A stretch of DNA of 64,000 bases, taken from Escherichia virus TH15. Below the pieces are notes generated by a model that was not told where the DNA came from, did no database searches, and saw only the letters and a list, made by a program, of their open reading frames with translations. The DNA is taken from sequence record MT446392.1. The stretch is one strand, 5' to 3'. Made by a program: the position numbers and the translations under genes. Shown piece by piece: positions 1,807 to 56,141 of this stretch (the first letter of the stretch is position 1; every line of letters begins with the position of its first letter).

Positions 1807-4062
1807 ATGCAAGTACAAAAAAGTAGTGGTGTCTCTCAAGATTTTGATGGCCAGAAAATTATTAAAGTTCTTTCCTGGTCATGTGAAGGAACTAATATCG
1901 ACCCGTATGAATTATACGAAACAATCAAACCACATCTGCGCGATGGTATGACTACCCGCGATATTCAGACGGTTATCATCAAAGTGTCTGCTGGGCTTAT
2001 TTCGGTCGAAGAACCGGATTATCAATATGTTGCAGCGAAGGCTACGATGTTTGCTCTGCGTAAAGATGTTTATGGGCAATTCGAGCCACGTTCTTTTATT
2101 GACCAGATTTCTTATTGTGTTAATGAAGGCAAATATGACCCGGAACTGTTGTCAAGCTACTCCGCCGAAGAGATTACTTATCTGGAATCTCGTATCAAGC
2201 ACGAACGCGATTTTGACCTGACTTATGCAGGCGCGATGCAGTTGAAAGAGAAATACCTGGTTAAAGATAAAACCACTGGTAAAATCTACGAGACTCCACA
2301 ATTCGCTATCATGGCTATCGGCATGGCACTGTACCAGGATGAACCAACGGACCGTCTGAAGCACATTTGCCGTTTTTATGATGCAGTATCCACAAGACAG
2401 GTTTCGTTGCCCACACCTATCATGGCGGGCGCCAGAACACCCACCAGGCAGTTCAGTTCCTGCGTGGTTATCGAAGCTGCAGACTCCCTGAAGTCAATCA
2501 ATAAGACTGCCAATTCAATCATCGAATATATCAGTAAGCGTGCGGGTATCGGCATCAACGTTGGTATGATTCGTGCTGAAGGTTCGAAAATCGGTATGGG
2601 TGAAGTTCGTCATACTGGTGTTATTCCGTTCTGGAAACATTTCCAAACGGCTGTTAAATCCTGTTCACAAGGTGGAATCCGTGGCGGCGCTGCTACTGCT
2701 TATTATCCTTTATGGCATTTGGAAGTTGAAAATTTACTCGTTCTGAAGAACAACAAGGGCGTTGAAGAAAACCGCATCAGACATATGGACTATGGTGTCC
2801 AGTTGAATAACATGATGATGGAACGTCTGGCTAAGAATGATTACATCACTCTGTTTAGTCCACATGAAGCTGGTGGTGAATTGTATTATTCATATTTTGA
2901 TAACCCGGATAAATTCCGCGAGTTATATGAAGCCTTAGAAAAAGACCCGACAGTTCGTAAGAAACGTATCAAAGCAAAAGACCTGTTCGAATTATTCATG
3001 ACCGAACGTTCCGGCACTGCCCGAGTTTATCCACAGTTCGTTGATAACGTGAATGACTATACTCCGTTCATCCGCGATAAGGCTCCGATTCGTCAATCAA
3101 ACCTTTGTTGTGAAATTGCAATCCCGACTACTGATGTAAACAGCGAAGATGCTGAAATCGGATTGTGCACATTGTCTGCATTTGTTCTGGATAGTTTTGA
3201 CTGGCAGGACCAAGATAAGATTAACGAGCTGGCTGAAGTTCAAGTTCGTGCTCTTGATAATCTGTTGGACTACCAAGGTTATCCGGTTAAAGAAGCTCTG
3301 AAAGCCAAAAAACGTCGCAACTTGGGCGTTGGTGTTACCAACTACGCTGCATGGCTGGCAAGCAATTTCGCTTCCTACGCCGATGCAAACGATTTAACCC
3401 ATGAATTATTTGAGAGATTACAATATGGCCTTATCCGAGCATCCATCAAGCTCGCCAAAGAAAAAGGACCTTGCGAATATTATTCAGACACTCGTTGGGC
3501 TCGAGGCGAATTACCTATCGACTGGTACAATAAAAAGATTGACCAAATCGCAGCTCCAAACTACGTTTGTGACTGGGCGCAGCTGCGGGAAGACCTGGTT
3601 GCACATGGCATCCGTAATAGCACCTTATCTGCGCTCATGCCTTGCGAGTCGAGCAGCCAAGTTTCAAATAGTACCAACGGTATCGAACCTCCGCGTGGTC
3701 CAGTAAGTATTAAGGAAAGTAAAGAAGGTTCCTTTAACCAGGTTGTTCCAAATATCGAGCATAATAAAGGATTGTACGATTACGCATGGGTACTGGCTAA
3801 ACAAGGTAATAAACCTTATCTGACTCAAGTCGCGATTATGTTGAAATGGATTTGTCAGTCAGCATCAGCAAACACTTATTATGACCCGCAGAATTATCCG
3901 AAAGGAAAAGTTCCGATGTCAGTTATGCTTGACGACTTGATGTACGGTTGGTATTATGGAATCAAGAATTTTTACTATCACAATACTCGTGATGGCTCGG
4001 GAACTGACGATTACGAATTGGAAATGCCAAAAGCTGATGATTGCTCGGCATGTAAACTGTAA
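1807..4062 (+). CDS. nrdA: ribonucleotide reductase large subunit
   Basis: 751-aa ORF (T4 NrdA is about 754 aa); RBS GAGGAAAA; position after td. Confidence 0.93.
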   Translation: MQVQKSSGVSQDFDGQKIIKVLSWSCEGTNIDPYELYETIKPHLRDGMTTRDIQTVIIKVSAGLISVEEPDYQYVAAKATMFALRKDVYGQFEPRSFIDQISYCVNEGKYDPELLSSYSAEEITYLESRIKHERDFDLTYAGAMQLKEKYLVKDKTTGKIYETPQFAIMAIGMALYQDEPTDRLKHICRFYDAVSTRQVSLPTPIMAGARTPTRQFSSCVVIEAADSLKSINKTANSIIEYISKRAGIGINVGMIRAEGSKIGMGEVRHTGVIPFWKHFQTAVKSCSQGGIRGGAATAYYPLWHLEVENLLVLKNNKGVEENRIRHMDYGVQLNNMMMERLAKNDYITLFSPHEAGGELYYSYFDNPDKFRELYEALEKDPTVRKKRIKAKDLFELFMTERSGTARVYPQFVDNVNDYTPFIRDKAPIRQSNLCCEIAIPTTDVNSEDAEIGLCTLSAFVLDSFDWQDQDKINELAEVQVRALDNLLDYQGYPVKEALKAKKRRNLGVGVTNYAAWLASNFASYADANDLTHELFERLQYGLIRASIKLAKEKGPCEYYSDTRWARGELPIDWYNKKIDQIAAPNYVCDWAQLREDLVAHGIRNSTLSALMPCESSSQVSNSTNGIEPPRGPVSIKESKEGSFNQVVPNIEHNKGLYDYAWVLAKQGNKPYLTQVAIMLKWICQSASANTYYDPQNYPKGKVPMSVMLDDLMYGWYYGIKNFYYHNTRDGSGTDDYELEMPKADDCSACKL

Positions 4063-4790
4063 TGAATTATCAAAACATTTATAATAATTTAATATCCCGG
4101 GGTAAAACCCGGGAACCTTTAGCCGAATATAAAGAGATTCATCATATTATCCCAAGATGTATGGGTGGTACTGATGAAAAGACAAACCTTGTCGAGTTAA
4201 CAGCTCGAGAACATTTTATTGCTCATTTACTTTTATGCAAAATAAATCCCGGTCATTTTGGATTAGTCTCGGCCCTAACTTTAATGGCAACAGATAAAGC
4301 TGGAAATCGTATTAATAATAAATTGTATAGTTTCCATCGAAAGCTATTTGCCAAAGCAAATTCCGAATTCTTTAAGGAACACTGGAAAAATAACCCACAC
4401 CCCCGCGGTATGTTGGGTAAGCATCACAGTGAAGAATCTAAACAAATTGTAAGCGAAAAGAATAAGTTAGCTGTTCCATCTACAGAAATTTATCAATTTA
4501 CTCTCGATGGTGAATTTGTTGAAAAATTTAGGTCATTACAAGAGGCGGCGAGGACTGTAAATGGAAACGCGTCAAACATCAAGTATTGTGCAAGTGGAAA
4601 ATTTCAATATGCGTATGGATTTAGATGGTCATATTCGCTTCAACCCACATTTGATAAAATAACTCCACGACAATATAAAGGTGCCCGTGGTAAAATCTGT
4701 ATTAATGACGGGTTTACAAATAAATTAATTGAATCCTCTGAAATTATCCCCGATGGATGGGTCAGAGGAAGGATAAAGGTTAATAAATGA
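4062..4790 (+). CDS. mobE: freestanding HNH homing endonuclease, MobE-like
   Basis: 242-aa ORF with HHIIPRCMGG...N...H HNH motif; sits between nrdA and nrdB as mobE does in T4; start and stop overlap neighbours (ATGA). Confidence 0.75.
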   Translation: MNYQNIYNNLISRGKTREPLAEYKEIHHIIPRCMGGTDEKTNLVELTAREHFIAHLLLCKINPGHFGLVSALTLMATDKAGNRINNKLYSFHRKLFAKANSEFFKEHWKNNPHPRGMLGKHHSEESKQIVSEKNKLAVPSTEIYQFTLDGEFVEKFRSLQEAARTVNGNASNIKYCASGKFQYAYGFRWSYSLQPTFDKITPRQYKGARGKICINDGFTNKLIESSEIIPDGWVRGRIKVNK

Positions 4791-5965
4791 GTACAGTTTT
4801 TAACACCAAACAAGTCGATGTTTTGGAGGAGCCGATGTTCTTCGGTTCCGGATTGGGCATCGCCCGTTATGATATCCAACGTCATAAGGTATTTGAAGAA
4901 CTTACTGAAAAATCCCTCTCATTTTTCTGGCGGCCAGAGGAAGTCAACCTGATGATGGATGGAGCCCAATTTAATAAGCTTCCTGAACATCAACAAAATA
5001 TTTTTACCAACAACCTGAAATACCAATCACTTCTGGATAGTATCCAGGGTCGTGCTCCAGCTGCAGCATTAGCCGCATTAGTTTCCGACCCAAGTCTTGA
5101 TACATGGATTCAGACCTGGACATTCAGCGAGACAATTCACTCTCGTTCTTATACGCACATAATGCGAAATCTCTATACGGACCCGGCGAAGGTATTCGAC
5201 GAAATCCTGTTAGATGATGCAATTATGAAGCGCGCAGAATCTATCGGTCATTACTATGATGATGTTCTGAATAAAACTCGTCAATGGCAAAACCAGATTG
5301 CTTTTGTTGAACTGGCCAAAGAAACTCCCGAAGCGGACGAACGTTTGGAACGAGCTATCAAACAAGAAGCTATTGCCAAACGAGCATTGATGAAGTCTCT
5401 TTATCTCTGTCTGCACGTTATTAACGCCCTGGAAGCTATTCGTTTTTATGTATCTTTTGCTTGTACTTTCAACTTCCATAAAAACATGGAAATCATGGAA
5501 GGTAATGCGAAGATAATGAAGTTCATCGCCCGTGATGAACAGCTCCACCTTAAGGGGACCCAATATATTCTTCGTCAGTTGCAGACTGGCACCGACGGTG
5601 ACGAATGGGTTAAAATTGCTCAAGAATGTGAAGCAGAAGCCGCAGCTATTTTCATGGAAGTTAATCGCCAGGAAAAAGAATGGGCCGTGCATCTGTTTAA
5701 AGATGGTGGACTCCCTGGGCTGAGCGTCGAGATTCTTAACCGGTTCATCGATTACCTGACAGTTTCTCGTATGAAGCAATGCGGTCTCCCTTGTGAAATC
5801 GTGTTAGAATCTACTAAGCACCCGATTCCATGGATTCGCGAATATCTCAATTCTGATAATGTGCAATCAGCACCACAAGAAGTTGAGTTGTCCGCTTACC
5901 TGGTAGCCCAGATTGACAATGACGTCGATGAGAATGTTCTTGCTGGTTTCCGTAAATATCTATAA
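4787..5965 (+). CDS. nrdB: ribonucleotide reductase small subunit, uninterrupted
   Basis: 392-aa ORF; diiron R2-type sequence; no intron or I-TevIII-like insert. Confidence 0.93.
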   Translation: MSTVFNTKQVDVLEEPMFFGSGLGIARYDIQRHKVFEELTEKSLSFFWRPEEVNLMMDGAQFNKLPEHQQNIFTNNLKYQSLLDSIQGRAPAAALAALVSDPSLDTWIQTWTFSETIHSRSYTHIMRNLYTDPAKVFDEILLDDAIMKRAESIGHYYDDVLNKTRQWQNQIAFVELAKETPEADERLERAIKQEAIAKRALMKSLYLCLHVINALEAIRFYVSFACTFNFHKNMEIMEGNAKIMKFIARDEQLHLKGTQYILRQLQTGTDGDEWVKIAQECEAEAAAIFMEVNRQEKEWAVHLFKDGGLPGLSVEILNRFIDYLTVSRMKQCGLPCEIVLESTKHPIPWIREYLNSDNVQSAPQEVELSAYLVAQIDNDVDENVLAGFRKYL

Positions 5966-5967
5966 GG

Positions 5968-5988
5968 AAAGGGCTTCGGCCCTTTTTG
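5968..5988 (+). terminator. rho-independent terminator (GGGCUUCGGCCC + U-run)
   Basis: GC stem with UUCG tetraloop followed by TTTTT directly after the nrdB stop. Confidence 0.7.
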
Positions 5989-5991
5989 TCT

Positions 5992-6402
5992 ATGAAACAA
6001 ATCGCTGACGAATACAGTTTTATAAAATATGCGGAGTTAGAGTTAGTCGATGGTAAAATCCCTATCCTTACTCTCGCAAACAAGAAAAATGTTATCTACG
6101 CTATTTCAGTTGACGACGAACTAGTGTATATTGGTAAGACGAACAACCTGAAGAAGCGAATCAATTATTACCGGACTGCAATCAATCGTATAGAACAAAC
6201 GAGTGATTCAAACAAATCCCGGATGATACATGAAGCTTTACAAGAAGGCAAAAAGGTGGTATTCTATGCACGACAATGTTTCAATCTGTCAATGACCAAT
6301 GAACTTGGTACGATGTCAGTCGAAACGATGTCTCTGGAAGAGCCGATGTTCATCAAGCTTTTTAATCCCCCGTGGAATTACCAACATAAGGTGAAGAAAT
6401 GA
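5992..6402 (+). CDS. denA: endonuclease II (GIY-YIG family)
   Basis: 136 aa from ATG at 5992 (track start 5986 is TTG inside the terminator); VIYAISVDDELVYIGKT GIY-YIG motif; T4 EndoII is 136 aa. Confidence 0.85.
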   Translation: MKQIADEYSFIKYAELELVDGKIPILTLANKKNVIYAISVDDELVYIGKTNNLKKRINYYRTAINRIEQTSDSNKSRMIHEALQEGKKVVFYARQCFNLSMTNELGTMSVETMSLEEPMFIKLFNPPWNYQHKVKK

Positions 6403-7535
6403 TTGAATTATATGATAACTTAATGAAGCTTTGCGCTGAATCCGATAAAGGTAAGTTTTTCTATACGGATTTTGTTTCTCCATTTGAAACTAAGTTCCGC
6501 ATCTTTAGCTATAACTATGCTTCCTATAGCGATTGGCTCCTTGATGATGCATTAGAGTGCCGCGGCATTATGTTTGAAATGGATGCAGATGGCCCAGTTC
6601 GTATTGCAGCTCGTCCTATGGAAAAGTTCTTTAACTTGGGCGAAAATCCGTTGACCATGGATATCAATATGGATGAAGTTGCGCTGGTCATGACCAAGGC
6701 TGATGGCTCTCTTGTCTCCACTTATATGGACCAGACCAACATTGCCTTTAAATCAAAGGGGTCAATCAAAAGCTCCCAGGCAGCAGAAGCACTACAGGTA
6801 TTCAAACAAGAACACCGTATAGCTTTCCGTGAGCGCGTAACTGAAATTACTGAAGCTGGTTATACATGCAATATGGAATATGTTGCACCAACCAACCGCA
6901 TTGTTTTGCCTTACCAGGAACGTGACCTGATTTTACTGAACGTTCGCCATAATGAAACTGGTGAATATATCCCTTATCAGGATTTGTTTAAAGATGCCGC
7001 GCTTCGCCCATTCCTGGTTGAAGCATATGACCCGGCTACAATTGAAAACGTCCGTGATATGAAAGAGATTGAAGGCTTTGTCTATGAGCTGGCTGACGGT
7101 CGCAAATTTAAAGTTAAGACAGAATGGTATTGTGCTTTACACCATACCAAGGATTCTGTTAACAATAACCAGCGTCTTTTTGAAGTTGTTGTTGCAGGCG
7201 GTGCAGATGATGTTATTGCCATGTTTACTGGCGATGATTATGCTCGTGAAAAAGTTAATGCCTTTACCATTGCACATCTGGATTATCTGTCCAATACCCT
7301 GGGACTGTTGCTTGATGCCCAGAAACAGTTGGCGGGAAAAGACCGACGCGAGTTTGCGATTAAAGGTCAAGAGTTGTGTAAACCATATCCGGGTTTGTTC
7401 TCCGTATTAATGAACACCTATCAACGTCCCCAGGAAACAGAGCAAACCATCGCTCAAATCAATAATGTTTTCCTTAAAAATCATAAACTTTACATCCCGG
7501 TGGACTACCAAGCGGATGTAATCCTGCCTGAATAA
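6399..7535 (+). CDS. rnlA: RNA ligase 1
   Basis: 378-aa ORF; nucleotidyltransferase KxDG motif (MTKADGSL); T4 gp63 is 374 aa. Confidence 0.9.
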   Translation: MIELYDNLMKLCAESDKGKFFYTDFVSPFETKFRIFSYNYASYSDWLLDDALECRGIMFEMDADGPVRIAARPMEKFFNLGENPLTMDINMDEVALVMTKADGSLVSTYMDQTNIAFKSKGSIKSSQAAEALQVFKQEHRIAFRERVTEITEAGYTCNMEYVAPTNRIVLPYQERDLILLNVRHNETGEYIPYQDLFKDAALRPFLVEAYDPATIENVRDMKEIEGFVYELADGRKFKVKTEWYCALHHTKDSVNNNQRLFEVVVAGGADDVIAMFTGDDYAREKVNAFTIAHLDYLSNTLGLLLDAQKQLAGKDRREFAIKGQELCKPYPGLFSVLMNTYQRPQETEQTIAQINNVFLKNHKLYIPVDYQADVILPE

Positions 7536-32595: not shown

Positions 32596-33723
32596 ATGGC
32601 TTTTATTGTATCTATTGCAGGTTCAGCCTCAATGAAAATTGGCGATAGCGCCAACTATACCGCTACTGCATCAGGAGCAGCGGTGGAAGGAACTGTCACA
32701 TATGTATGGACTATTGATGGCGCCTCAAATCCAGAATCAACTAACGTTCTTCGTTATACGGGTACTGCTCCCGCGGGAAAGAAAATTTTAAAAGTAGTCG
32801 CGACTTCCACACCGGCTGAAGGTGAGCCTGAAGTAGCCGAAAATACTTTTGAAGTAAATGTATCTAATAAAACTATGAGTATTTCTTTAGCTTTGGACCC
32901 AGTTTCTGTATCTAAAGAAATTGGCCAATCTCAAGTTGTTACTGCTAACGTAACAGGTGCTCCTTCTGGAGCCACGATTGCTTATGTTTGGAAACGCAAT
33001 TCTAATGTAATCGCAGGTCAAACTGGTAAAACTATTACCGTAACCGAAGCAGCAGAAGCAAATTATACTTTGAACTGTGAAGTTACGGTTACTGCTCCTG
33101 AATATGATTCAGCTACTGCTACTAAAGGCGCGACGGTAACTTTTGCCAAGAAAACAATGTCAGGTGTTTCTGTTGTTTTAACACCGGAATCAATTAATGT
33201 TCCTAAAGATACACCAGCATCATTTAAGGCCGATGTAGTCGGTGCACCGAGTGAAGCATCCGGTGTTTATACATGGAAAAAAGATGGTTCTCCTGTTGAA
33301 GGTTCAACTTCCACTTTGACAATTGATACAAGTACCGAAGGTTCTCAAGTCATTGAAGTTTCGGTTGTTGTTTCTGCGCCCGATTATAAATCAGTAACAG
33401 TGACAACAACAGGTAATGTTACTATAACAGCTAAAGTTGCGCCGGAACCAGAAGGGGAACTTCCATATATTCATCCATTACCAGTTCGCAATTCAGCATA
33501 TATTTGGGCCGGTTGGTGGGTTATGGATGAGATTCAGAAGATGACTCTTGCTGGTAAAGACTGGAAAACCGATGAACCTGATAGTAATTATTATCTTCAT
33601 CGATACACTCTTGCCAAAATGCTTAATGATTATCCAGAGGTTGATGTACAAGAATCTCGCAATGGTCGAATTATTCATCGCACCGCGCTTGACGCTGGTA
33701 TTATCTACGACTACGTATATTAA
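32596..33723 (+). CDS. hoc: highly immunogenic outer capsid protein Hoc
   Basis: 375-aa ORF (T4 Hoc 376 aa); Ig-like repeats and conserved C-terminal capsid-binding region (GWWVMDEIQK...EVDVQESRNG). Confidence 0.85.
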   Translation: MAFIVSIAGSASMKIGDSANYTATASGAAVEGTVTYVWTIDGASNPESTNVLRYTGTAPAGKKILKVVATSTPAEGEPEVAENTFEVNVSNKTMSISLALDPVSVSKEIGQSQVVTANVTGAPSGATIAYVWKRNSNVIAGQTGKTITVTEAAEANYTLNCEVTVTAPEYDSATATKGATVTFAKKTMSGVSVVLTPESINVPKDTPASFKADVVGAPSEASGVYTWKKDGSPVEGSTSTLTIDTSTEGSQVIEVSVVVSAPDYKSVTVTTTGNVTITAKVAPEPEGELPYIHPLPVRNSAYIWAGWWVMDEIQKMTLAGKDWKTDEPDSNYYLHRYTLAKMLNDYPEVDVQESRNGRIIHRTALDAGIIYDYVY

Positions 33724-33752
33724 AAAAGAAAGGGCCTTGCGGCCCTTTTTTA
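33724..33752. terminator. bidirectional terminator (GGGCCUUGCGGCCC)
   Basis: Hairpin flanked by A6 and T6 between convergent hoc and hoc-like gene. Confidence 0.8.
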
Positions 33753-33753
33753 T

Positions 33754-34620
33754 TTACCAAACTAAATCCTTTTTACCTAAAATATATCCGTTTCTTGATT
33801 CCTGTACTTCAATATCAGGATATTTCTCAAGCATTTCTGCTATCTTAGCAAGCTCACATTTGTATTTAAATCTATCGTGCATAGGATTCTTATGCCATTC
33901 AAAGCCTTCTATCAAAGCCTCTAAAATCTCATCATGAACCCACCAGCCAATCCACATATAAACTTTATTTCGACCACCACTTAAATGACTAAGATGCTCA
34001 TACTGATTAAGGTCATGAACATAGATATCTTTACATTCTATAGTAGTAGAAGGAGGAACTAATTGAATGTCAATTAGAGCTGTTGTTTCTTTATATCCAC
34101 CATGACTAAATGCTGTAGTAGATAATGTATAAGTTCCGTAATAAGAATCATCTTCAACAGTAAGACTAAATTGTTCATCAGTTCCTATTTGAATGCCATT
34201 ACGAAGCCAAACACACTTTCTATGAACCCATGTTGGCTCTACTATACACTGAGGAGCAAAATGGACCTGGCCGCCTATAGGAACTTCTATATAAAGTCTA
34301 GTTTTAAACTGTATTGTCGGTTCTCTAAGTTCTTCGCCTATTTCTAATTGAATTCTATTAGTTCTATACATCTCCCCTGTTGACTTAACGCCTAAAAGAG
34401 CGTAATATTCTCCTTCGGCTGGATAACCGACATCCCATAAATTTAGAGTCCATGGGTTTTCAGAATCCAACTTAGGTATAAGAACTACATCTTTATACCA
34501 TGCTACGTGAATATCATCAGGATGTATATTTACAGGCAAAGAAATCTCGGATAAATCAAATGTAATATCTTGACCTATCTGAGCATAATGAGGACCATGC
34601 ATAACGGCATATAATTTCAT
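33754..34620 (-). CDS. Hoc paralog: novel N-terminal region fused to Hoc-type C-terminal capsid-binding domain
   Basis: 288-aa ORF; C-terminal ~65 aa share YMWIGWWVHDEI...YPDIEVQESRNGYI with Hoc; RBS GGAGA overlaps stop of upstream collagen-like gene. Confidence 0.7.
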   Translation of the reverse strand: MKLYAVMHGPHYAQIGQDITFDLSEISLPVNIHPDDIHVAWYKDVVLIPKLDSENPWTLNLWDVGYPAEGEYYALLGVKSTGEMYRTNRIQLEIGEELREPTIQFKTRLYIEVPIGGQVHFAPQCIVEPTWVHRKCVWLRNGIQIGTDEQFSLTVEDDSYYGTYTLSTTAFSHGGYKETTALIDIQLVPPSTTIECKDIYVHDLNQYEHLSHLSGGRNKVYMWIGWWVHDEILEALIEGFEWHKNPMHDRFKYKCELAKIAEMLEKYPDIEVQESRNGYILGKKDLVW

Positions 34621-34629
34621 GGGTTCTCC

Positions 34630-35949
34630 TTAAGATGCAAATATTATAGGTATACGCCCATGATTATTATTTTTAATAACCTGAATATAGATGTCAGAAT
34701 CAACATAATCATTTAAAGACCCGGTTGGAAGCATTTTTAAAGTATACCAAAAACCTGTGGCTTTATCTATAATTTCTGCAGTTGAACCTTCTCGACACTT
34801 ATCAAAAGAAATGTTATCCCATGTTACCCATGAGCTAGTCAGGTTTAAATTATTATCTGACTTGTTTTCTAAGCCAACCGCGTCATAGTTTGTGGTTCTA
34901 CGATAAGAATATGAAGCTGGCAAAGAGTCATTAAATCTTTTGACACTGATATCAAATGTGTTTTTAGTTGTGACTTTATATTTCATAGAAATATTAGTAT
35001 CAGCTAGTTTGACCGTGGCTTCAGCATTAGGAGAAGACATTGAATTAAAGCTTAAAATAATTTCCCAATATTTCTTAGGTTCAAATGGTTTAAGCTTGTC
35101 ATATAATTCCTCTAATTGAGATTCTGTCAAGCTGCCAATATCAAGAGCAGGGCCTTGAGGGCCTTGTGCACCGTCTATACCATTTTTACCAGGGTCGCCT
35201 TTTAATCCTTGCAGGCCTTGTGGTCCTTGAGGGCCATCTGTTCCAGCAGGACCTTGGTCACCTTTATCTCCTTTATCACCCTTGTCTCCTTTTGCGCCAG
35301 CCGATGCCATTATGGCCCAATCGTCATTTGACGGCAACGGCGGAATACCGGTATGAGTCGTAAGACTAAAATAGGTAGCTCCTTGGTACGCTACGGCGTC
35401 ATTTGGTACATACTCAATAGATATATCATATTCACCTTTCCATATTAATCCTGTTGCTCCTGCGGGGCCCGGGTCGCCTTTAGGACCATCTAGACCATTT
35501 TTACCCGGGTCGCCTTTAGGACCTTGAATACCTTGAATACCTTGAGGGCCGGTAGCCCCATCAATGCCGTTAGTTCCATCAGCCCCTTTAGGACCTTGAA
35601 TACCAGGTGCACCATCCATCCCGTGTACACCTGCCAGGCCTTGGGGACCTTGTAGACCATCTATTCCAGCAGGACCTTGTGGTCCTGGGTCACCTTTTAA
35701 TCCTTGTGGGCCTTGAATGCCCTGGATACCTTGGTCGCCTTTTGGGCCTACTGCGCCATCAGAAATTCCTATAAATGTCTTTGCTTCTTCTGAAGTAGCT
35801 TTAGTTAAAAATTCTAAACTCCAATCGGTAGTTGAACTTGTCGTAATAAGGTCTTCTACTTGTTTTGTATTACCTGCCTCTGGATTTCTAATGGTTTTGC
35901 CAGAAAAGTTACCTCTACCATCATGCCCAAACAATCTTTCGTCAGCCAT
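34630..35949 (-). CDS. collagen-like repeat protein with C-terminal globular domain
   Basis: 439-aa ORF; two uninterrupted Gly-X-Y runs (33 and 16 triplets); late promoter and RBS upstream. Confidence 0.75.
35149..35298 (-). repeat. collagen Gly-X-Y coding repeat, block 2 (16 triplets incl. GDKGDKGDK)
   Basis: Same periodicity; encodes [19 protein letters not shown]... Confidence 0.8.
35449..35748 (-). repeat. collagen Gly-X-Y coding repeat, block 1 (33 triplets)
   Basis: Periodic GGN-NNN-NNN codons visible as CCNNNNNNN periodicity on + strand. Confidence 0.8.
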
Positions 35950-35984
35950 TGTATCTTCTCCAATTTATTTGAATAACACAATTG

Positions 35985-35992
35985 TATTTATA
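35985..35992 (-). promoter_or_regulatory. late promoter TATAAATA for collagen-like/Hoc-like operon
   Basis: Exact TATAAATA on - strand about 35 nt upstream of the collagen-like ATG. Confidence 0.5.
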
Positions 35993-36634: not shown

Positions 36635-37639
36635 ATGTTTAAGAAATATAACAGCCTTGAAAATCACTATAACAACAAGTTCATTGAAAAGATTCGCCTG
36701 CAAGGCTTCACCAGCGGTGAATGGGTAGCTCGTGAGAAAATTCATGGTACCAACTTTTCATTAATTATTGAACAAAATAATGTGACATGTGCGAAACGCA
36801 CTGGACCTATCCTACCTGCAGAAGATTTCTATGGCTACGAAATTGTACTCAAGAACTATGCAGATTCCATTAAAACTGTGCAGAGACTTTTACAGGATAT
36901 TAATTACCAATCATACCAAATTTATGGTGAGTTTGCTGGTACAGGTATCCAGAAGAATGTGGATTATGGCGACAAAGATTTCTATGTGTTTGATATCCGC
37001 GTTACTAAGGAAGATGGCTCTGAATCTGTTTTGACTGATTCATTGATGGAAGCCTTCTGTATTATCCATAAATTTAAGGTTGCCCCACGCCTGGCTACGG
37101 GTAGTTTTGAAGACTTGATTAAGCTCCCTAACGACCTGGATTCTGTGGTTCCTGATTACAATTTTACAGTAGATAATGCGGGTTTGACTACCGCGAATAC
37201 CACCGATTTTGACGCAAAGGTTGAAGGTAAAGTATTCACTGCAGAAGGGTATGTTCTTAAACCTGATACTCCTGCCTGGTTACCTAATGGTGAGCGCGTA
37301 GCGATTAAATGTAAGAACTCTAAATTCAGCGAAAAGAAAAAGTCTGATAAGCCTATCAAGGCTGCTGTTGTGTTGTCCCAGGAAGACCTGGACATTTTAT
37401 GGAAGTTTACCGATTATGTGACTGTTAACCGTATCAATAATGTTATCAGTAAAATTGGGGAAGTAACGCCAAAGGATTTTGGAAAGGTAATGGGTTTGAC
37501 TGTTCAAGATATTTTGGAAGAAGCGGGTCGGGAAGGCCTTGAATTAACCCAAACGGAAAATCCTGTTGAAGTTAAAAAGCAACTCATTGCAAATGTAAGA
37601 GATACATTAAGACATGTTTGGATTGCATTAATTAGTTAA
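36635..37639 (+). CDS. rnlB: RNA ligase 2
   Basis: 334-aa ORF, same length as T4 Rnl2; KIHGTN adenylation motif; near-identical N-terminus to T4 Rnl2 as recalled. Confidence 0.9.
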
Positions 37640-37640
37640 T

Positions 37641-37668
37641 AAAAAAGGGCCGCAAGGCCCTTATTCTT
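37641..37668. terminator. bidirectional terminator (GGGCCGCAAGGCCC)
   Basis: Hairpin flanked by A-run and T-run between convergent rnlB and the gene 24 paralog. Confidence 0.7.
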
Positions 37669-38944
37669 TTTCCAGTGGTGGAAGTTTAACACCAAGATAA
37701 GAACTCAATTGGCTTTGGTTAGCCATCTTATCCATATCAGCCCCATCAATAATGCGAGCTTCTTTATCGTCTTTAGCAACGGTATAAGGGTTCGCAGTCA
37801 GTGCATAACGAGCTAACAGTGCAACTGTAGGCTGTAAACTTTCAGGGTCAACGATAACCTTGAATTCCCCAACCGAGGTGTCACCCTCATCATCAACTTC
37901 ACTAAGACCTTCCGTATAAGGCGCATAATACAAAGATGCGACCGTCTGACCTTCACCCATATCGGCATTTACGCCAACAATAACATAATCGCATGGGCTA
38001 TTCATATCTGCATAAAGCGGCAAACCGTTCTTCAGAACGCCATAGGCCAATTCATCCTGGTCGTCCTTTTTCTCAACCCAACCAGAAGCTGCTAAAATAG
38101 CTGCACACCGGGAAGAGGCAACTGCATATGTACCAGCGAACGAAGTCTGACGTTGAACTGCGGAATTCATTTCGCACATATAATAATACAGGGTTCGAGC
38201 CCGGTCTTGCGCATTATCATATCTCGGGTCGGTAAGATTCAATACACCTTTTTCAGAAACACCTTGTACCTTGAAGCGGGAACTAACAGTAATAAGGGAT
38301 TGCAGTACGTCCTTATTAATTTCCTCTGCCATTTGAATGCCAAGGATATTATCAATAAAATCTGTTGCGTCGAAACCATTTGCTTCCAGGTCCTGAGCAA
38401 GCTCAACAGTTAAAGAGGTTTTCAGTTTTCTGGATTTGACTTCGGTCTGCCATTTATCGATACGGAAACCGGCTTCAGCAATTTCAGGATGACCCTGTTC
38501 AAATTTATTAGTGAAAGCTGCATCCGACATCATTCTTATATGGCCAGCAGCAATGGCTTCAGAAATAACTTCACCCAAATCAGTTTCAAGGGTCCCAGCA
38601 AAAGGAGAAGCTTCCAAAACTTTGAATACAACGCTTTCGAACTGGAACATATCGCCGACTGCATAAGCTTCGTCTTTATTTGTAAATTCTGGGATATTCT
38701 TACGCTCGAACATGCCAATCTGGCCTGCAAATGTTGCTCCACCAAGATATGTCATTTTATCATCTGGGTTCAGAACACGAACACCATACAACGCTGCAAC
38801 AGGCTGGGTAGTTTTCTGTTCGGCAACGAGTGCTTTAAAAATTCGTTTATTCGTAGCCTGGGTATAAGAAAGCAAATTAGGACGGGCGACCTGGTTGGCC
38901 GCCGTTAATGTTGATTCGTGAATTAGTGCGTTAATCTTTTGCAT
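37661..38944 (-). CDS. capsid vertex protein paralog (gp24-like, divergent copy)
   Basis: 427-aa ORF, roughly 55% identical by eye to the adjacent gp24; starts immediately after gp24 stop (TAAATG) with GAGG RBS inside the upstream gene. Confidence 0.8.
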   Translation of the reverse strand: MQKINALIHESTLTAANQVARPNLLSYTQATNKRIFKALVAEQKTTQPVAALYGVRVLNPDDKMTYLGGATFAGQIGMFERKNIPEFTNKDEAYAVGDMFQFESVVFKVLEASPFAGTLETDLGEVISEAIAAGHIRMMSDAAFTNKFEQGHPEIAEAGFRIDKWQTEVKSRKLKTSLTVELAQDLEANGFDATDFIDNILGIQMAEEINKDVLQSLITVSSRFKVQGVSEKGVLNLTDPRYDNAQDRARTLYYYMCEMNSAVQRQTSFAGTYAVASSRCAAILAASGWVEKKDDQDELAYGVLKNGLPLYADMNSPCDYVIVGVNADMGEGQTVASLYYAPYTEGLSEVDDEGDTSVGEFKVIVDPESLQPTVALLARYALTANPYTVAKDDKEARIIDGADMDKMANQSQLSSYLGVKLPPLEKE

Positions 38945-40225
38945 TTACGCCTCATAAATGATTGGCGGAAGTTTAACACCGAGCAGATAAGACATATTGC
39001 TCTGGCCGGCCATTAAATCCATATTAGTTGCATCGATAATACGAGCTTCTTTGTCGTCTTTAGCAACGGTGTAAGGGTTAGCTGAAAGTGCATATCGAAC
39101 CATCAGGGAGATAGATGGCTGCAAGCTGTCTGGGTCCACAATGACCTTAAATGCACCTACGTGTTCTTCATCATCTAAGTCCAGGCCTTCGGTATAAGGA
39201 GCATAGAAGATTGAGCCTACGACTTCGTTTCCGCCATAATTTTCTTTAACGCCAACGGTTACATAATCTAATGGACTGTTAACATCACAGAATACAGGAA
39301 GACCATTAATCAAATAACCATACGCGGTTTCCGGGAGCCATTGTTCATCTTCAGGTTTATGTTTCAACCAACCGGAACCGGCGAGCATCGCGGCCACACG
39401 ACTTGAGGCAACAACGAATGTACCAGAGTAAGATGTAGTTTTCTGAATTTCAGAGTTCATTTCGCACACCAGTTCGTACAGTTTACGTGCGCCTTCTGGA
39501 GCTGAATCATATGTCAAATCGATGAAACCTTTATCAGAAACGCCAGTGACTTTATAACGCTTGGAAACGGTAATCAGAGACTGAAGAACATCTTTGTTAA
39601 TTTCATCTGCCATAGTAGTTGCAAGCAGGTCTTCCAGGAAAGCAGGAGCATTAAAACCGTTTGCTTCCATATCCTGTGCAAGTTCAACAGTCAGTGCAGT
39701 TTTCAATTTACGGGATTTAACAGGAGCATTCCATTTATTAACCTGGAATACAGCGTTACTAATTTCAACATCACCAGCTTCAAATTTCTCGGTGTGTGCA
39801 GCATCAGGAACTAAACGAATAGTCGATGCAATAAGACCTTCTTGCAGAACATCAGATAATACTGTTTCTGTAGTCGTTGCAAATGGATTATCCACCAGAG
39901 CTTTGTAAACGATATTTTGATATTTTACATATTCGCCTTTAGCAACAGGTTGAGTAGCTGTAGCTAATTCTGGAATAGTTGTACGGTCTTTAGAACCGAC
40001 TTCACCACCATAAGTAGCACCAGTCTGGAAACTGAATTCATTATCAGGAGTAAGATATTTAACACCGTACAGCGCAGCAACAGGCTGGTTAGTACGTTGT
40101 TCAGCGATGATATCGCGGTAAATCAATTTAGTTGTAGCGCGGGTCAAAGCAACAAGATTCGGGCGGCCTAATGAGTTGCTGGATGTAGTAGTTGACTCGC
40201 GCAGCAGTTCGTTAATCTTTGCCAT
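38945..40225 (-). CDS. 24: capsid vertex protein gp24
   Basis: 426-aa ORF (T4 gp24 427 aa); N-terminus MAKINELLRESTTT matches T4 gp24 as recalled. Confidence 0.9.
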   Translation of the reverse strand: MAKINELLRESTTTSSNSLGRPNLVALTRATTKLIYRDIIAEQRTNQPVAALYGVKYLTPDNEFSFQTGATYGGEVGSKDRTTIPELATATQPVAKGEYVKYQNIVYKALVDNPFATTTETVLSDVLQEGLIASTIRLVPDAAHTEKFEAGDVEISNAVFQVNKWNAPVKSRKLKTALTVELAQDMEANGFNAPAFLEDLLATTMADEINKDVLQSLITVSKRYKVTGVSDKGFIDLTYDSAPEGARKLYELVCEMNSEIQKTTSYSGTFVVASSRVAAMLAGSGWLKHKPEDEQWLPETAYGYLINGLPVFCDVNSPLDYVTVGVKENYGGNEVVGSIFYAPYTEGLDLDDEEHVGAFKVIVDPDSLQPSISLMVRYALSANPYTVAKDDKEARIIDATNMDLMAGQSNMSYLLGVKLPPIIYEA

Positions 40226-41016: not shown

Positions 41017-42576
41017 TTAAATTCCCTTAACATATACACGTCTAAAGTAACCGTTCAAGCCGAGGCTGTTAACGATGTCCGGCATACCGTTTTGAATACG
41101 CTTGGTCGGAGCCTGAGCTGCCGGGTCAGCGAACGGGTTAATACCGATACCGTAACGGGTTTTGAAGCCCATAACCGGCTGGAAGTTTTTCGGGTCAGAG
41201 CCACGCAGCGGTGTCAGTGCAACATATGGTGCGTAGTAGATACCAGCATCCATTTCGTTAGCACCTTTGTAACCGATGGTGAAGTAATCTGCGCGAGCAT
41301 ACTGGTCGATATAGACACGGTATTTGCCACCCAGAACACCAGCGAACACAGCTTTAGTGGTGTCAACGTTGAAACCTTTACCCAGACCCTGAGCAGCATA
41401 AGATACGGAGGTATCAACTGCAGCCAGTACGTTAACTACGTTACGGGAAGCGATGATGAAGTTACCTGCACCACGACCGGTCTGACGAGCGATTTCAGCA
41501 GCTTCTTTGTCAATCTGGAACAGTAAAGCTTTGAAGCTTTCACCAGCCCAACGAGCGCCACGGATATCAATCGGGTCCTGGAAGTCAAACACACCAGCTT
41601 TAGCGCCAACGGTGTTGGTCATACCAGATTTACCAACCTGTGCGGAGTAGTTAATCCAATCGATAACTTCGCGGTTGATTTCCAGCATAATTTCAGTAGC
41701 CAGAATACCACTCAATTCAGCATCAGCGTCCATACCGTGAACAGCGCGCAGGTCCTGTGCCAGTTCGATAGAGTAGCTTGCTTTCAGCTGACGGGATTTA
41801 GCTTCGATAACTTGTTTATCGATGCGGAAGCCCATTTCGTTCCACGGGTTATCCTGAGAACCGTTGAAACCTTCCTGCAGTTCGGCGATAGAGGTAGCCA
41901 TACCTTCAGCGATTTCTGCCAGTTTACCAGCTTCGAGCAGTTTGGTAACTTCAGCGTCAAGTTTAGCAGCATCAGTAGCGGCGGCATCAACGGTTACAGC
42001 TTCAACAGCCTGGTAGTGTGCGGAACCGGTTGCTTCGAAGAAGTGAGAATAAATTTTACCAACGGTAAGAACTTTGCTTGCAGCCAGAGCTTCGAAAGCT
42101 TCAGCAGCGCCCTGACCGGAGAACATAGCGTTCGGAGCATACATCGGGTGGAAAGCTTCTTTAGCACCAGCAGCTACAGGGTCTTTACCGTAAACTGCAC
42201 GCAGGGCAAATACCTGGCCAGTCGGGTTGTTCAGAGGCTGGACGCCACAAATATCAAACGCAATCAGATGCGGGATAGCACGACGAACCATACCCATAAC
42301 TGCCGGCCCAATCTGAGTTACTGCACCAGAGGTCTGGCCAGCAGCGATATTGGTAGCATCATAACCATGGTCACCACCGATTTCAGCTTCGGTCAGGAAA
42401 GAACCAAATGCTTCGGAGATTTTTTCGTCACGGTATTCTGGAGCGGTCAGGATATCTTGTTCCTGGTTTTCAAAGATTTTAGCGATGATAGCTTGTTTAG
42501 AAGCACCAACGATTTCAGGAAGAGCTTCATTTTCCAGCAGAGCGGACCATTTTTGTACTAATGCATTCTTTTTCAT
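41017..42576 (-). CDS. 23: major capsid protein
   Basis: 519-aa ORF (T4 gp23 521 aa); synteny and sequence resemblance as recalled. Confidence 0.92.
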   Translation of the reverse strand: MKKNALVQKWSALLENEALPEIVGASKQAIIAKIFENQEQDILTAPEYRDEKISEAFGSFLTEAEIGGDHGYDATNIAAGQTSGAVTQIGPAVMGMVRRAIPHLIAFDICGVQPLNNPTGQVFALRAVYGKDPVAAGAKEAFHPMYAPNAMFSGQGAAEAFEALAASKVLTVGKIYSHFFEATGSAHYQAVEAVTVDAAATDAAKLDAEVTKLLEAGKLAEIAEGMATSIAELQEGFNGSQDNPWNEMGFRIDKQVIEAKSRQLKASYSIELAQDLRAVHGMDADAELSGILATEIMLEINREVIDWINYSAQVGKSGMTNTVGAKAGVFDFQDPIDIRGARWAGESFKALLFQIDKEAAEIARQTGRGAGNFIIASRNVVNVLAAVDTSVSYAAQGLGKGFNVDTTKAVFAGVLGGKYRVYIDQYARADYFTIGYKGANEMDAGIYYAPYVALTPLRGSDPKNFQPVMGFKTRYGIGINPFADPAAQAPTKRIQNGMPDIVNSLGLNGYFRRVYVKGI

Positions 42577-54116: not shown

Positions 54117-56141
54117 TTATGGTCCAACAGTCACGAATGTAGACAAAAGAACCCATGCATTATCAACAAGCACGTAAGGGAGACCATCAGCCGCAGGAGC
54201 GACAGGAGGCCTTTTGGTGAGCTCTGTTTCCAAGGCTGATACTTTACCTTCCAAAGTAGTTATCTTCGTCTCGGCTGCATCCAGGCGACCAGGGAGCGGA
54301 GTTACTGTACCTTCAAGAGTTGTCACACGATCAGTTAACGGTGTAATTTTTGCAGTATCGAGTTTAATTGCAGTGATTTCCCCTTCCGCCGAAGTCATTC
54401 GACCGGTCAAGGTTACCAAACCGCCTTTGTTTGTTTCGATATTTGCTTTAATGGTAACCAGCTCACCTTCAACATTGCTAACGTCTAAAGCTAAAGCAGT
54501 GACATCATCATCGGTCGTAGATGTTTTAGTTTCCAATGCGGTTATTTTACCATCAACAGTCGTATCCTTCGTTTCTAATGCAGTAATTCGACCATCTTGT
54601 TCCGTATCTTTATTTTGCAGAGCGAGAACATCTGCCTTAATATTCGTAACGGAAGTGTTCAATGCACCATAACGAGTATCTAACGAACTGATTGCCGTAT
54701 CATTATCATCGACACGACCAGTTAATGTTGTTACGCGTCCATCAGTTGTTACCAATGAAGCTTTAACTGCATCAACTTCGGTTGTGGAATCGATAATTTC
54801 AGACCAGGCACCTTGCTTGCGACCGTATAACTTGTTGTCCAATGGCGCATCGTTCAACTTGGATGCCATCAACATATCCAAGTTAATTACGACTGGAAGA
54901 ACACCACGTTCAGCCACAGTAGCACCGTTAGGGTTAGTCCCGTTCATCTGGCTAGTTAAAGTCAAAATAGAACCTTTCATACCAGTGCTATTTGTACCAA
55001 TTTCAGCCTGCACATCCTGAAGACCTGATGCAGTTTCATTAGCCAGCGTAGTGGTTGCATTCAACTTATACGTGATGGTGTTTGGCTCCGGAGATTGCTC
55101 TGTACCGATTCTCTGAGAAAGCCATGCAGTGGTCCCGCGTAAACCGGAGCTTGAATCCTGACCAACAACAGCCTGCAATCCATTAACATCCGAGCGCAAA
55201 GCACTGATTCGACCATTAATTGTTAATGGTTCCAGAGCGGTGCCGATATCAGCTTCGACCTTAGTAAGTCTTGGTTTGATATTCGCAATATCTGTTTCAT
55301 TGACCGAAACACGCCCACCAAGATTTTCAACGCGAGTTGTAATTGCAAGCCCGGTACCAAAACCGATAGCTTCTTGAATATTGGTAATATCTTCGTCAAT
55401 TTCGACTACTTTGTCATCAAGAGTATTCAGTCGAACAAATACAGCCGGTTTACCTACTGCTAAAGTCGACTCACCCAATTCTTCGCGAATTTTAATTACT
55501 TTTACGTTAAGAGAACCAACATCAGAATCATGGTAATTATCCTCAAGAGTCTTAATACGAACTCCATGGGCAACAATAGCCGAACTGTTATCGAGGATAC
55601 GACGTTTCATGCCTTTTGACGGATTACCAATAACCTGTAGACCATTTATATCCTGGTCAACATACTGACCCAATTCATTTTTAATCCATACAAGGTCATT
55701 ACGAACTGTGCGATAATACGAATCGGTTAACGGGTCATAAACACCAACATCTTCTTTTAACTTTGTAAGACCTTCGGATGTTTCGCTTGACAGCAATTCG
55801 GTATTAAATTGACGTTCATCAAGGTCAAGAATATCCGTACGGTTTTTTTCAATTTGCTTAACAACTTCCGTGTTAGTTGTTATATCCAAAGCTTCCTGGA
55901 TATTATTGACGTTATCAATAATTTCATTGATTTTTTCTTTAGATGTATTTGAGTTGTCGTCGAGTGTATCTACGTTTATTTGAACGCCAACCGCGGCGGC
56001 GTTCAAATTACCATCATGACCATATTTGGTACTGGCCGCAGTCATACAATCGCCGTTTTGTATCCAACGAATTCTCTGTTGACCTTCGTCTGGAATACCG
56101 ATGCTATACGGCAGTTCTTTGAGACTGAGTTTATTAATCAT
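54117..56141 (-). CDS. wac: fibritin (whisker / neck fibre), extended coiled coil
   Basis: 674-aa ORF; heptad-repeat-rich; C-terminal foldon-like ...PYVLVDNAWVLLSTFV; T4 fibritin is 487 aa. Confidence 0.85.
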   Translation of the reverse strand: MINKLSLKELPYSIGIPDEGQQRIRWIQNGDCMTAASTKYGHDGNLNAAAVGVQINVDTLDDNSNTSKEKINEIIDNVNNIQEALDITTNTEVVKQIEKNRTDILDLDERQFNTELLSSETSEGLTKLKEDVGVYDPLTDSYYRTVRNDLVWIKNELGQYVDQDINGLQVIGNPSKGMKRRILDNSSAIVAHGVRIKTLEDNYHDSDVGSLNVKVIKIREELGESTLAVGKPAVFVRLNTLDDKVVEIDEDITNIQEAIGFGTGLAITTRVENLGGRVSVNETDIANIKPRLTKVEADIGTALEPLTINGRISALRSDVNGLQAVVGQDSSSGLRGTTAWLSQRIGTEQSPEPNTITYKLNATTTLANETASGLQDVQAEIGTNSTGMKGSILTLTSQMNGTNPNGATVAERGVLPVVINLDMLMASKLNDAPLDNKLYGRKQGAWSEIIDSTTEVDAVKASLVTTDGRVTTLTGRVDDNDTAISSLDTRYGALNTSVTNIKADVLALQNKDTEQDGRITALETKDTTVDGKITALETKTSTTDDDVTALALDVSNVEGELVTIKANIETNKGGLVTLTGRMTSAEGEITAIKLDTAKITPLTDRVTTLEGTVTPLPGRLDAAETKITTLEGKVSALETELTKRPPVAPAADGLPYVLVDNAWVLLSTFVTVGP

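Follow-up and report, generated by a model that had tools for sequence, protein, structure and literature searches.

A collagen-like fibre gene paired with a short Hoc paralogue in the head-decoration locus of the T4-like phage TH15

The gene considered here encodes a collagen-like fibre of Escherichia virus TH15 (sequence record MT446392.1, of which a window of 64,000 nt was analysed) and is followed directly by the gene for a short paralogue of the head-decoration protein Hoc, which we call Hoc-2; the two together are referred to as the cassette. Collagen is already well known in phage fibres (PMC3368898; PMC4621102). The EPclA-type proteins of E. coli O157 prophages are experimentally trimeric collagens, in which an N-terminal domain attaches to the virion and a C-terminal cap trimerises and binds the receptor (PMC3368898), but they are lambdoid side tail fibres, and their PfN (PF08400), Pf2 (PF03406) and PfC (PF06820) domains were not detected in the TH15 fibre, for which a Pfam scan at E ≤ 0.01 returned the Collagen family PF01391 alone. 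Fibres of CR3/CR8 and rV5-like phages have in common with it a segment in which a carbohydrate-binding module (CBM) lies between two collagen stretches (45–50% identity), but none of these phages is T4-like, and the listed matches are confined to residues 89–214, without the GHDGRG motif that marks the TH15 N-terminus.

Among head-decoration proteins, T4 Hoc sits at the centres of gp23 hexamers by its C-terminal domain (PMC10385173). Second, shorter Hocs have been noted in phages Muldoon and PG7, and the Hoc capsid-binding domain serves elsewhere in the display of other modules (PMC10385173, Fokine et al. 2023). T4 hoc occupies the same locus, and Hoc-2 shares the Hoc-type capsid-binding domain (WIGWWV..DEI...ESRNGYI) behind immunoglobulin (Ig)-like domains; T4 Hoc, however, is a monomeric 18-nm fibre of Ig-like domains only, whereas TH15 co-encodes a separate collagen-like protein. 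SPP1 gp12 is a collagen-like decoration protein at capsid hexamers, and resembles the TH15 fibre as proposed below in being a collagen-like trimer, in its proposed capsid decoration and in its proposed adhesion role, but differs in that it is listed directly at the hexamer (quasi-six-fold) sites and no adaptor is mentioned (PMC7602432). Neither 'collagen' nor 'fiber protein' occurs in the text of PMC10385173, and a full-text literature search found no paper linking a collagen-like protein to Hoc, nor the cassette itself.

Outside phages, the Bacillus exosporium glycoprotein BclA and C1q also combine a short N-terminal anchor, a collagen stalk and a beta-rich head, from which trimer formation presumably starts. 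In BclA the N-terminus attaches to another protein, which belongs to the basal layer. SPP1 gp12 is very small; its collagen stretch is short, and it is not known to carry a distal head. The TH15 fibre protein itself is thus a phage collagen-like fibre, of a known kind, and the fibre–Hoc-2 cassette is a new variation on head-decoration systems.

Co-inheritance of the fibre and Hoc-2

The TH15 window comes from a T4-like phage (Straboviridae), and at the nucleotide level the locus is nearest to Gaprivervirus and Dhakavirus phages. Its genes run in the order gp23, gp24 (twice), rnlB, 24.2/24.3, fibre, Hoc-2, hoc, inh and uvsW, and the fibre locus is the T4 head-decoration locus. The genomic context points to the phage head, as the fibre gene lies within the hoc locus in translational coupling with a Hoc paralogue. 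The cassette and its parts are as follows.

34630–35949 (minus strand): collagen-like fibre gene, ATG start, 439 aa plus stop codon
35758–35949 (minus): conserved N-terminal domain with the FGHDGRGNF motif, residues 1–64, proposed virion-attachment end
35443–35757 (minus): collagen block 1, residues 65–169, about 30 nm if triple-helical
35299–35442 (minus): CBM5/12-like beta knob between the collagen blocks, residues 170–217
35146–35298 (minus): collagen block 2, residues 218–268, about 15 nm if triple-helical
34633–35145 (minus): neck helix (about residues 276–289) and 10-strand beta-sandwich head, residues 269–439, proposed distal ligand-binding/trimerising domain
33754–34620 (minus): Hoc-2, the short Hoc paralogue (288 aa), built of two Ig-like domains and a Hoc-type capsid-binding C-terminal domain, ATG 9 nt past the fibre stop

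The fibre and Hoc-2 were found as a pair in 15 further loci, in six named Straboviridae genera and in unclassified phages. With the exception of VR7, the fibre comes first, both genes lie on the same strand and the gap between them is -11 to +11 nt. No tail gene adjoins the fibre in any of the 16 loci, and gp24, rnlB, hoc or inh is nearby in most. The carriers are listed below.

Dhakavirus: ABTNLsp5, CLB_P2 and JS10
Gelderlandvirus: CGG4-1
Roskildevirus: Cronus and FBB1, with the pair relocated directly after gp24
Gaprivervirus: VR7, a divergent cassette with a 127-nt gap, a fibre N-terminus without GHDGRG and Hoc-2 Ig domains that are also divergent
Aeromonas phages: 65 (Emmerichvirinae), AS4 and GomatiRiver_11
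Pantoea phage: Phynn
Metagenomic contigs, reached via Hoc-2 homologues: L016–L019, the fibre N-terminus of L017 lying off the contig end

The history of the pair is that of a single unit. Searches by tblastn retrieve essentially the same phages whether the query is the Ig part of Hoc-2 (22 phage records) or the N-terminus of the fibre (25 records). One Logan contig (SRR10097265, 118.9 kb; L016) carries two complete tandem cassettes at 2026–6995, encoding proteins of 488 + 278 aa and 586 + 286 aa. In PspYZU05 (L013, 3489–4153) the cassette has decayed: the fibre N-terminus is interrupted and Hoc-2 lacks its first domain(s). AP1 (L012, 3495–3731) retains a 78-aa remnant of the fibre N-terminus alone and has no adjoining Hoc-2. 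UPEC07, which is among the nearest nucleotide relatives of the locus, is without both genes, and its hoc runs straight to 24.3. The fibre and Hoc-2 have therefore been inherited, duplicated, decayed, lost and moved together.

Some individual carriers are of interest in their own right. The tandem cassettes of L016 differ in their fibre N-termini, heads and Hoc-2 first domains, and provide a natural test case of cognate pairing. In IME08 (L009) the body of the fibre (785–1972, annotated start doubtful) lies between gp24b and rnlB, while a short fibre N-terminal remnant, LYGHDGRGVSLELTSEST* (LYGHDGRG), is found at 3420–3485 directly upstream of hoc-2; this split could be a rearrangement or an assembly artefact. 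The fibre homologue of Phynn (L014, 3489–5061) has 239 aa; it comprises the N-terminal domain, neck and head and is entirely devoid of collagen repeats, and the Hoc-2 downstream of it is mis-annotated as a 'capsid vertex protein'.

Hoc-2 matches the 'Hoc-like head decoration' family PHROG 1149 (E 1.3e-43) and is 42% identical over 71 aa to the C-terminal domain of canonical Hoc (E 6e-16), and as judged from these matches it carries the capsid-binding domain of the Hoc family. Its binding at the centre of gp23 hexamers is putative, by domain homology and PMC10385173. Across 16 orthologues the tip Ig-like domain, D1, has a mean column identity of about 0.38 compared to about 0.29 for D2, with the D1 motifs WYK and LWDVGYPAxGxY, and the Hoc-2 of Erwinia phage Cronus consists of D1 and the capsid-binding domain only. 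Hoc-2 is also encoded on a 171.6-kb NCBI contig. A scan of IMG/VR with D1 found two known isolates only, and a scan of JGI metagenomes with the same domain found no match.

Consensus signals for expression surround the cassette.

35985–35992 (minus): T4-type late promoter consensus TATAAATA, a consensus match only, whose end lies 35 nt before the fibre ATG
35958–35961 (minus): Shine-Dalgarno sequence GGAG, 8 nt upstream of the fibre ATG at 35949
33729–33748 (minus): strong intrinsic terminator hairpin AAAGGGCC-GCAA-GGCCCTTT with a T run, downstream of hoc-2, where 30 nt separate hoc-2 from the end of the convergent hoc gene

The late-promoter motif TATAAATA occurs 19 times in the window, compared to 4.6 expected, mostly before structural genes. 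Because the promoter consensus lies upstream of the fibre, no such motif lies between fibre and hoc-2, the fibre stop codon overlaps the hoc-2 ribosome-binding site (TAAGGAGAACCCATG) and a terminator follows hoc-2, the two genes are predicted to form a late bicistronic unit.

Modules of the fibre protein

Eight residues into the fibre begins a motif, G8-H-D-G-R-G13, that is invariant in an alignment of nine homologues, and the domain that contains it is kept across genera. An AlphaFold monomer of the N-terminus has a mean confidence score (pLDDT) of 57; the motif is disordered in it, and three short helices come next. Such disorder would be compatible with folding upon a partner or within the trimer. 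A search of PDB sequences with a profile of this domain gave no match, and it shows no similarity to Wac.

The collagen identity of the stalk is secure. A regular-expression scan found 35 unbroken Gly-X-Y triplets in block 1 (residues 65–169) and 17 in block 2 (residues 218–268), GDKGDKGDK among them, and the protein has the long unbroken (Gly-X-Y)n runs of family PF01391 together with a score over its gathering threshold (91.3 bits compared to a cut-off of 27.2; E 3.2e-26). At a typical Gly frequency the probability of Gly at 35 successive third positions is about 10^-39, which together with the Pfam score rules out chance as the source of the runs. Pro fills 29% of X positions, Gln makes up 16–18% and charged residues 21–38% of X and Y positions, and this composition fits that of prokaryotic and bacterial collagens. 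Formation of a triple helix and of a trimer is predicted. In NCBIfam the only matches were Lcl and Scl1/2, all restricted to collagen and far under their cut-offs.

Most of this had been anticipated in a preliminary description of the same DNA, made from the sequence alone. Its open reading frame at 34630–35949 is exactly the 439-aa frame found here, to which we add the strand (minus); its two Gly-X-Y blocks (residues 68–167 with 33 triplets and 218–267 with 16) are the same two blocks, the counts differing only in whether the flanking GAV/GLI/GPA triplets are included; and its characterisation of the triplets as prokaryotic in type agrees with the Pro, Gln and charge content. The non-repetitive C-terminal domain, given as about 170 aa, has 172 (residues 268–439). 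The first 67 residues, described as Ser/Thr-rich, are so only weakly (15 of 67 are S or T), and the conserved domain with the GHDGRG motif was overlooked there, as was the nature of the roughly 50 aa between the collagen blocks.

These residues form a CBM5/12-like module. In TH15 the match to PF02839 lies under the gathering cut-off (E 0.0017; 18.8 bits compared to 26.2), but PF02839 was matched in 11 of the 16 mid-domains of the family, the best at E 6.8e-6, and many fibre homologues bear a precomputed PF02839 annotation. Among PDB sequences, a mid-domain profile gave as its top match the chitinase A1 chitin-binding domain (1ED7, E 0.005), and after it CBMs of other chitinases and deacetylases. 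Judged by its sequence, the middle knob is therefore homologous to CBM5/12 at the family level. Conserved aromatic residues (W173, Y177, Y183, Y191, Y196 and W214) are candidates for glycan binding. A Pfam scan of the sub-domains at E ≤ 10 added only the weak CBM_5_12 match and a marginal one to Reovirus_L2_8th (E 0.078).

Beyond the second collagen block, AlphaFold predicts a folded globular domain (residues 268–439; model m746d9e7a06d4 from a 9-sequence alignment; pLDDT 79.9, pTM 0.72) of one helix (domain residues 9–22) and ten beta-strands, which agrees with the stalk-plus-head layout of the preliminary description. This beta-sandwich head is without a solved relative; a search of PDB sequences with a profile of the domain gave no match, nor did a k-mer-indexed protein search with the domain alone. 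A full HMMER scan with the profile found 33 matches at E ≤ 1e-3 among 1.84 billion cluster representatives, so that the domain defined here is rare. The head also matched no known tail-fibre receptor-binding domain. A fold search of BFVD with the head model retrieved its own family only, plus, weakly, other collagen-tipped phage proteins. The matches include A0A7U3SQD9 (609 aa, the same length as the ABTNLsp5 fibre; 44% identity), the Aeromonas phage 65.2 'tail fiber protein', the JS10 'tail fiber-like protein' and the BECP10 'collagen-like protein'.

The two ends of the fibre differ in conservation. Compared to ABTNLsp5, TH15 is 91% identical in the fibre N-terminus and 90% in the CBM-like knob, but only 44% in the C-terminal head, which is the most divergent segment of the fibre; the corresponding values in Hoc-2 are 91% for D1, 77% for D2 and 86% for the capsid-binding domain. 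JS10 has the same type of fibre N-terminus and of Hoc-2 D1 with a different head. Conversely, the same head is found in other phages behind unrelated N-termini, of the 'TPLNADNLN..QG' type or with long coiled coils, and thus behaves as an exchangeable distal module. The N-terminus is constant and the C-terminal head exchangeable. By analogy with phage fibres in general, in which a constant N-terminus and a variable C-terminus are the usual pattern, these would be the attachment end and the ligand-binding end respectively.

Placement on the virion

Co-inheritance with a short Hoc suggests, but does not prove, that the fibre is on the head and not, as databases label it, on the tail. The interpretation that we favour, with a probability of about one half, is that the late-expressed, trimeric collagen-like fibre belongs to a two-part head fibre, with Hoc-2 fixed on the capsid as the dock for the fibre N-terminus. 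Hoc-2 would be held at the centre of the gp23 hexamer by its Hoc-type C-terminal capsid-binding domain, and its tip Ig-like domain, D1, would hold the FGHDGRGxF N-terminal domain of the fibre. The fibre would then project some 45–50 nm from the head, as a 30-nm rod, the CBM5/12-like knob, a 15-nm rod, the helical neck and the trimeric beta-sandwich head, and the latter, perhaps aided by the knob, might bind a surface ligand, variable in nature and most probably a glycan carried by host cells, mucus or biofilm. The result would be a reversible adhesion organelle on the virion head. Presence in the virion, location on the capsid, contact between the fibre and Hoc-2, and the ligand are all inferred. 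We suggest more tentatively that this is a two-component head organelle of T4-like phages not previously described, with Hoc-2 as the adaptor capturing the FGHDGRGxF segment of a modular fibre whose head is freely exchanged.

Pairwise identities of the fibre N-terminus correlate with those of Hoc-2 D1 (r 0.74, 15 pairs) more strongly than with those of the capsid-binding domain (r 0.39), and the partial correlation with D1 is 0.70 (permutation p 2e-4). We regard this correlation as no more than suggestive. Several considerations weigh against the two-part head fibre. The correlation, like any mirror-tree signal, is confounded by common ancestry and genetic linkage. No fusion of fibre and Hoc was found in a Rosetta-stone search among 17 Hoc-2 homologues, the AlphaFold model of the fibre N-terminus is of low confidence, and the exact late-promoter consensus is missing upstream in some relatives. 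Our search of the literature found no virion proteomics or electron microscopy for any member of the fibre family. The stoichiometry is awkward, as a trimeric collagen fibre would have to match a Hoc that is monomeric at a six-fold site; speculatively, the fibre might stand as a tripod on three adjacent Hoc-2 molecules. Finally, residues 2–268 match the 'tail fiber protein' family PHROG 5073 (E 1.4e-56), a label that rests on similarity only.

That last match belongs to the alternative which survives best, namely that the protein is an accessory tail, neck or baseplate fibre whose N-terminus plugs into a tail or neck protein, its adjacency to hoc-2 reflecting a shared hypervariable insertion site. 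About 20 more 'tail fiber' PHROGs match in addition to PHROG 5073, although most are confined to the collagen and CBM segment and PHROG 5073 alone reaches the N-terminal domain. The segment of collagen, CBM5/12 and collagen also occurs in proteins annotated as tail fibres in phages of the CR3/CR8 type, rV5-like phages and others, and the C-terminal head also occurs behind the 'TPLNADNLN'-type N-terminus, which we take to be typical of tail fibres. In known phage fibres, moreover, collagen is mostly an element of tail fibres (PMC3368898, PMC4621102). However, a tail fibre would be expected among tail, baseplate or fibre genes, and the absence of an adjoining tail gene in all 16 loci argues otherwise; a shared insertion site does not predict that the pair should stay joined through moves, duplication, decay and loss; and the N-terminus is unlike Wac in a phage that already possesses both wac and gp12. 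We therefore consider a tail location unlikely.

Less probable again is a head fibre whose own N-terminus attaches directly to the capsid, at quasi-three-fold or hexamer-centre sites, with Hoc-2 independent and merely co-regulated. The evidence from the locus and the operon applies equally to this arrangement, and three-fold capsid sites are a more natural partner for a trimer than a monomeric Hoc adaptor would be. Phage phi29 gp8.5 is an example of a head fibre at quasi-three-fold capsid sites. The collagen-like trimer SPP1 gp12 provides a precedent (PMC7602432). However, direct binding leaves unexplained the conservation and retention of Hoc-2 D1 (the only Ig-like domain in Cronus), the joint change of fibre N-terminus and Hoc-2 Ig type that separates VR7 from the rest, and the joint decay of both genes.

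The likeness to BclA and C1q raised in the preliminary description holds for the layout, in that a short N-terminal anchor and collagen are followed by a beta-rich, ten-stranded head of about 140 aa, but when the head was tested for a C1q/TNF/BclA-type jelly-roll, as had been proposed there, the fold was not found, and a strict BclA/C1q-type protein, with the stalk capped by a homologous TNF/C1q-like jelly-roll trimer, is very improbable. Equally hard to sustain is a non-virion protein that is secreted or cell-associated late in infection, for example in modification of the infected-cell surface or superinfection exclusion: the literature search gave no proteomic evidence of virion incorporation, but no signal peptide or membrane segment was seen by eye in the N-terminus (no predictor was run), every homologue lies in a phage genome within structural regions, and the late-promoter consensus, the fibre architecture and the coupling to a capsid-binding protein all argue for a virion component.

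Both the 'phage adherence to mucus' idea and the technology of display on T4 capsids are built on Hoc. If the fibre is indeed docked on the head by Hoc-2, some T4-like phages, among them candidates for therapy such as CLB_P2 and the phages of Dhakavirus and Gelderlandvirus, bear a head-borne adhesion organelle with interchangeable heads, which could affect host finding, gut retention and immunogenicity. It would be a second, head-mounted system for binding receptors or substrates and a natural 'plug-in' display for T4-type capsids, and Hoc-2 D1 and the N-terminal motif could serve as a non-covalent tag-and-dock pair in capsid engineering. A head location would also correct the widespread automatic label 'tail fiber protein'.

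Neighbouring genes and minor observations

The remaining annotated features of the window that bear on the locus are as follows.

32596–33723 (plus): canonical hoc, 375 aa, convergent with the cassette (PHROG 1149, E 2.5e-109)
36635–37639: RNA ligase 2 (rnlB)
37661–38944 and 38945–40225 (minus): two gp24 (capsid vertex) paralogues in tandem, each a strong match to PF07068
40319–40978 (plus): homing-endonuclease-like open reading frame between gp24 and gp23 (PHROG 314, E 8.7e-50)
41017–42576: gp23
54117–56141 (minus): fibritin (wac) homologue, 674 aa

A tie between the cassette and the duplication of gp24 was considered and rejected, since relatives that lack the cassette (UPEC07) also carry two copies of gp24. 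Both wac and gp12 are encoded elsewhere in the window. The TH15 Wac is longer than that of T4, which we take to be about 487 aa, and its extra C-terminal part weakly matches 'tail needle'-type PHROGs.

In TH15 the fibre stop codon and the hoc-2 ATG share a frame and lie 9 nt apart (window positions 34621–34632; TAA GGA GAA CCC ATG). The same arrangement is present in ABTNLsp5, CLB_P2, CGG4-1 and L019, and absent from the other relatives. Fusion of the two proteins by stop-codon read-through was rejected, as the gap ranges from -11 to +11 nt in relatives of the GHDGRG type and is often out of frame.

An identical fibre gene and surrounding region are present on Logan contig SRR11772944_42. The exact 439-aa sequence is listed as absent from a 15-billion-protein collection and did not come up in a homology search, yet contig L015 of that same collection encodes an identical copy, which looks like an indexing gap in the resource rather than biology.

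Tandem repeats of 9 bp and 18 bp in the DNA at 35258–35292 and 35521–35545 (minus) underlie GDKGDKGDK and GIQGIQ in the collagen blocks, and slippage at these repeats could alter the length of the collagen. Collagen length varies widely between the fibre homologues.

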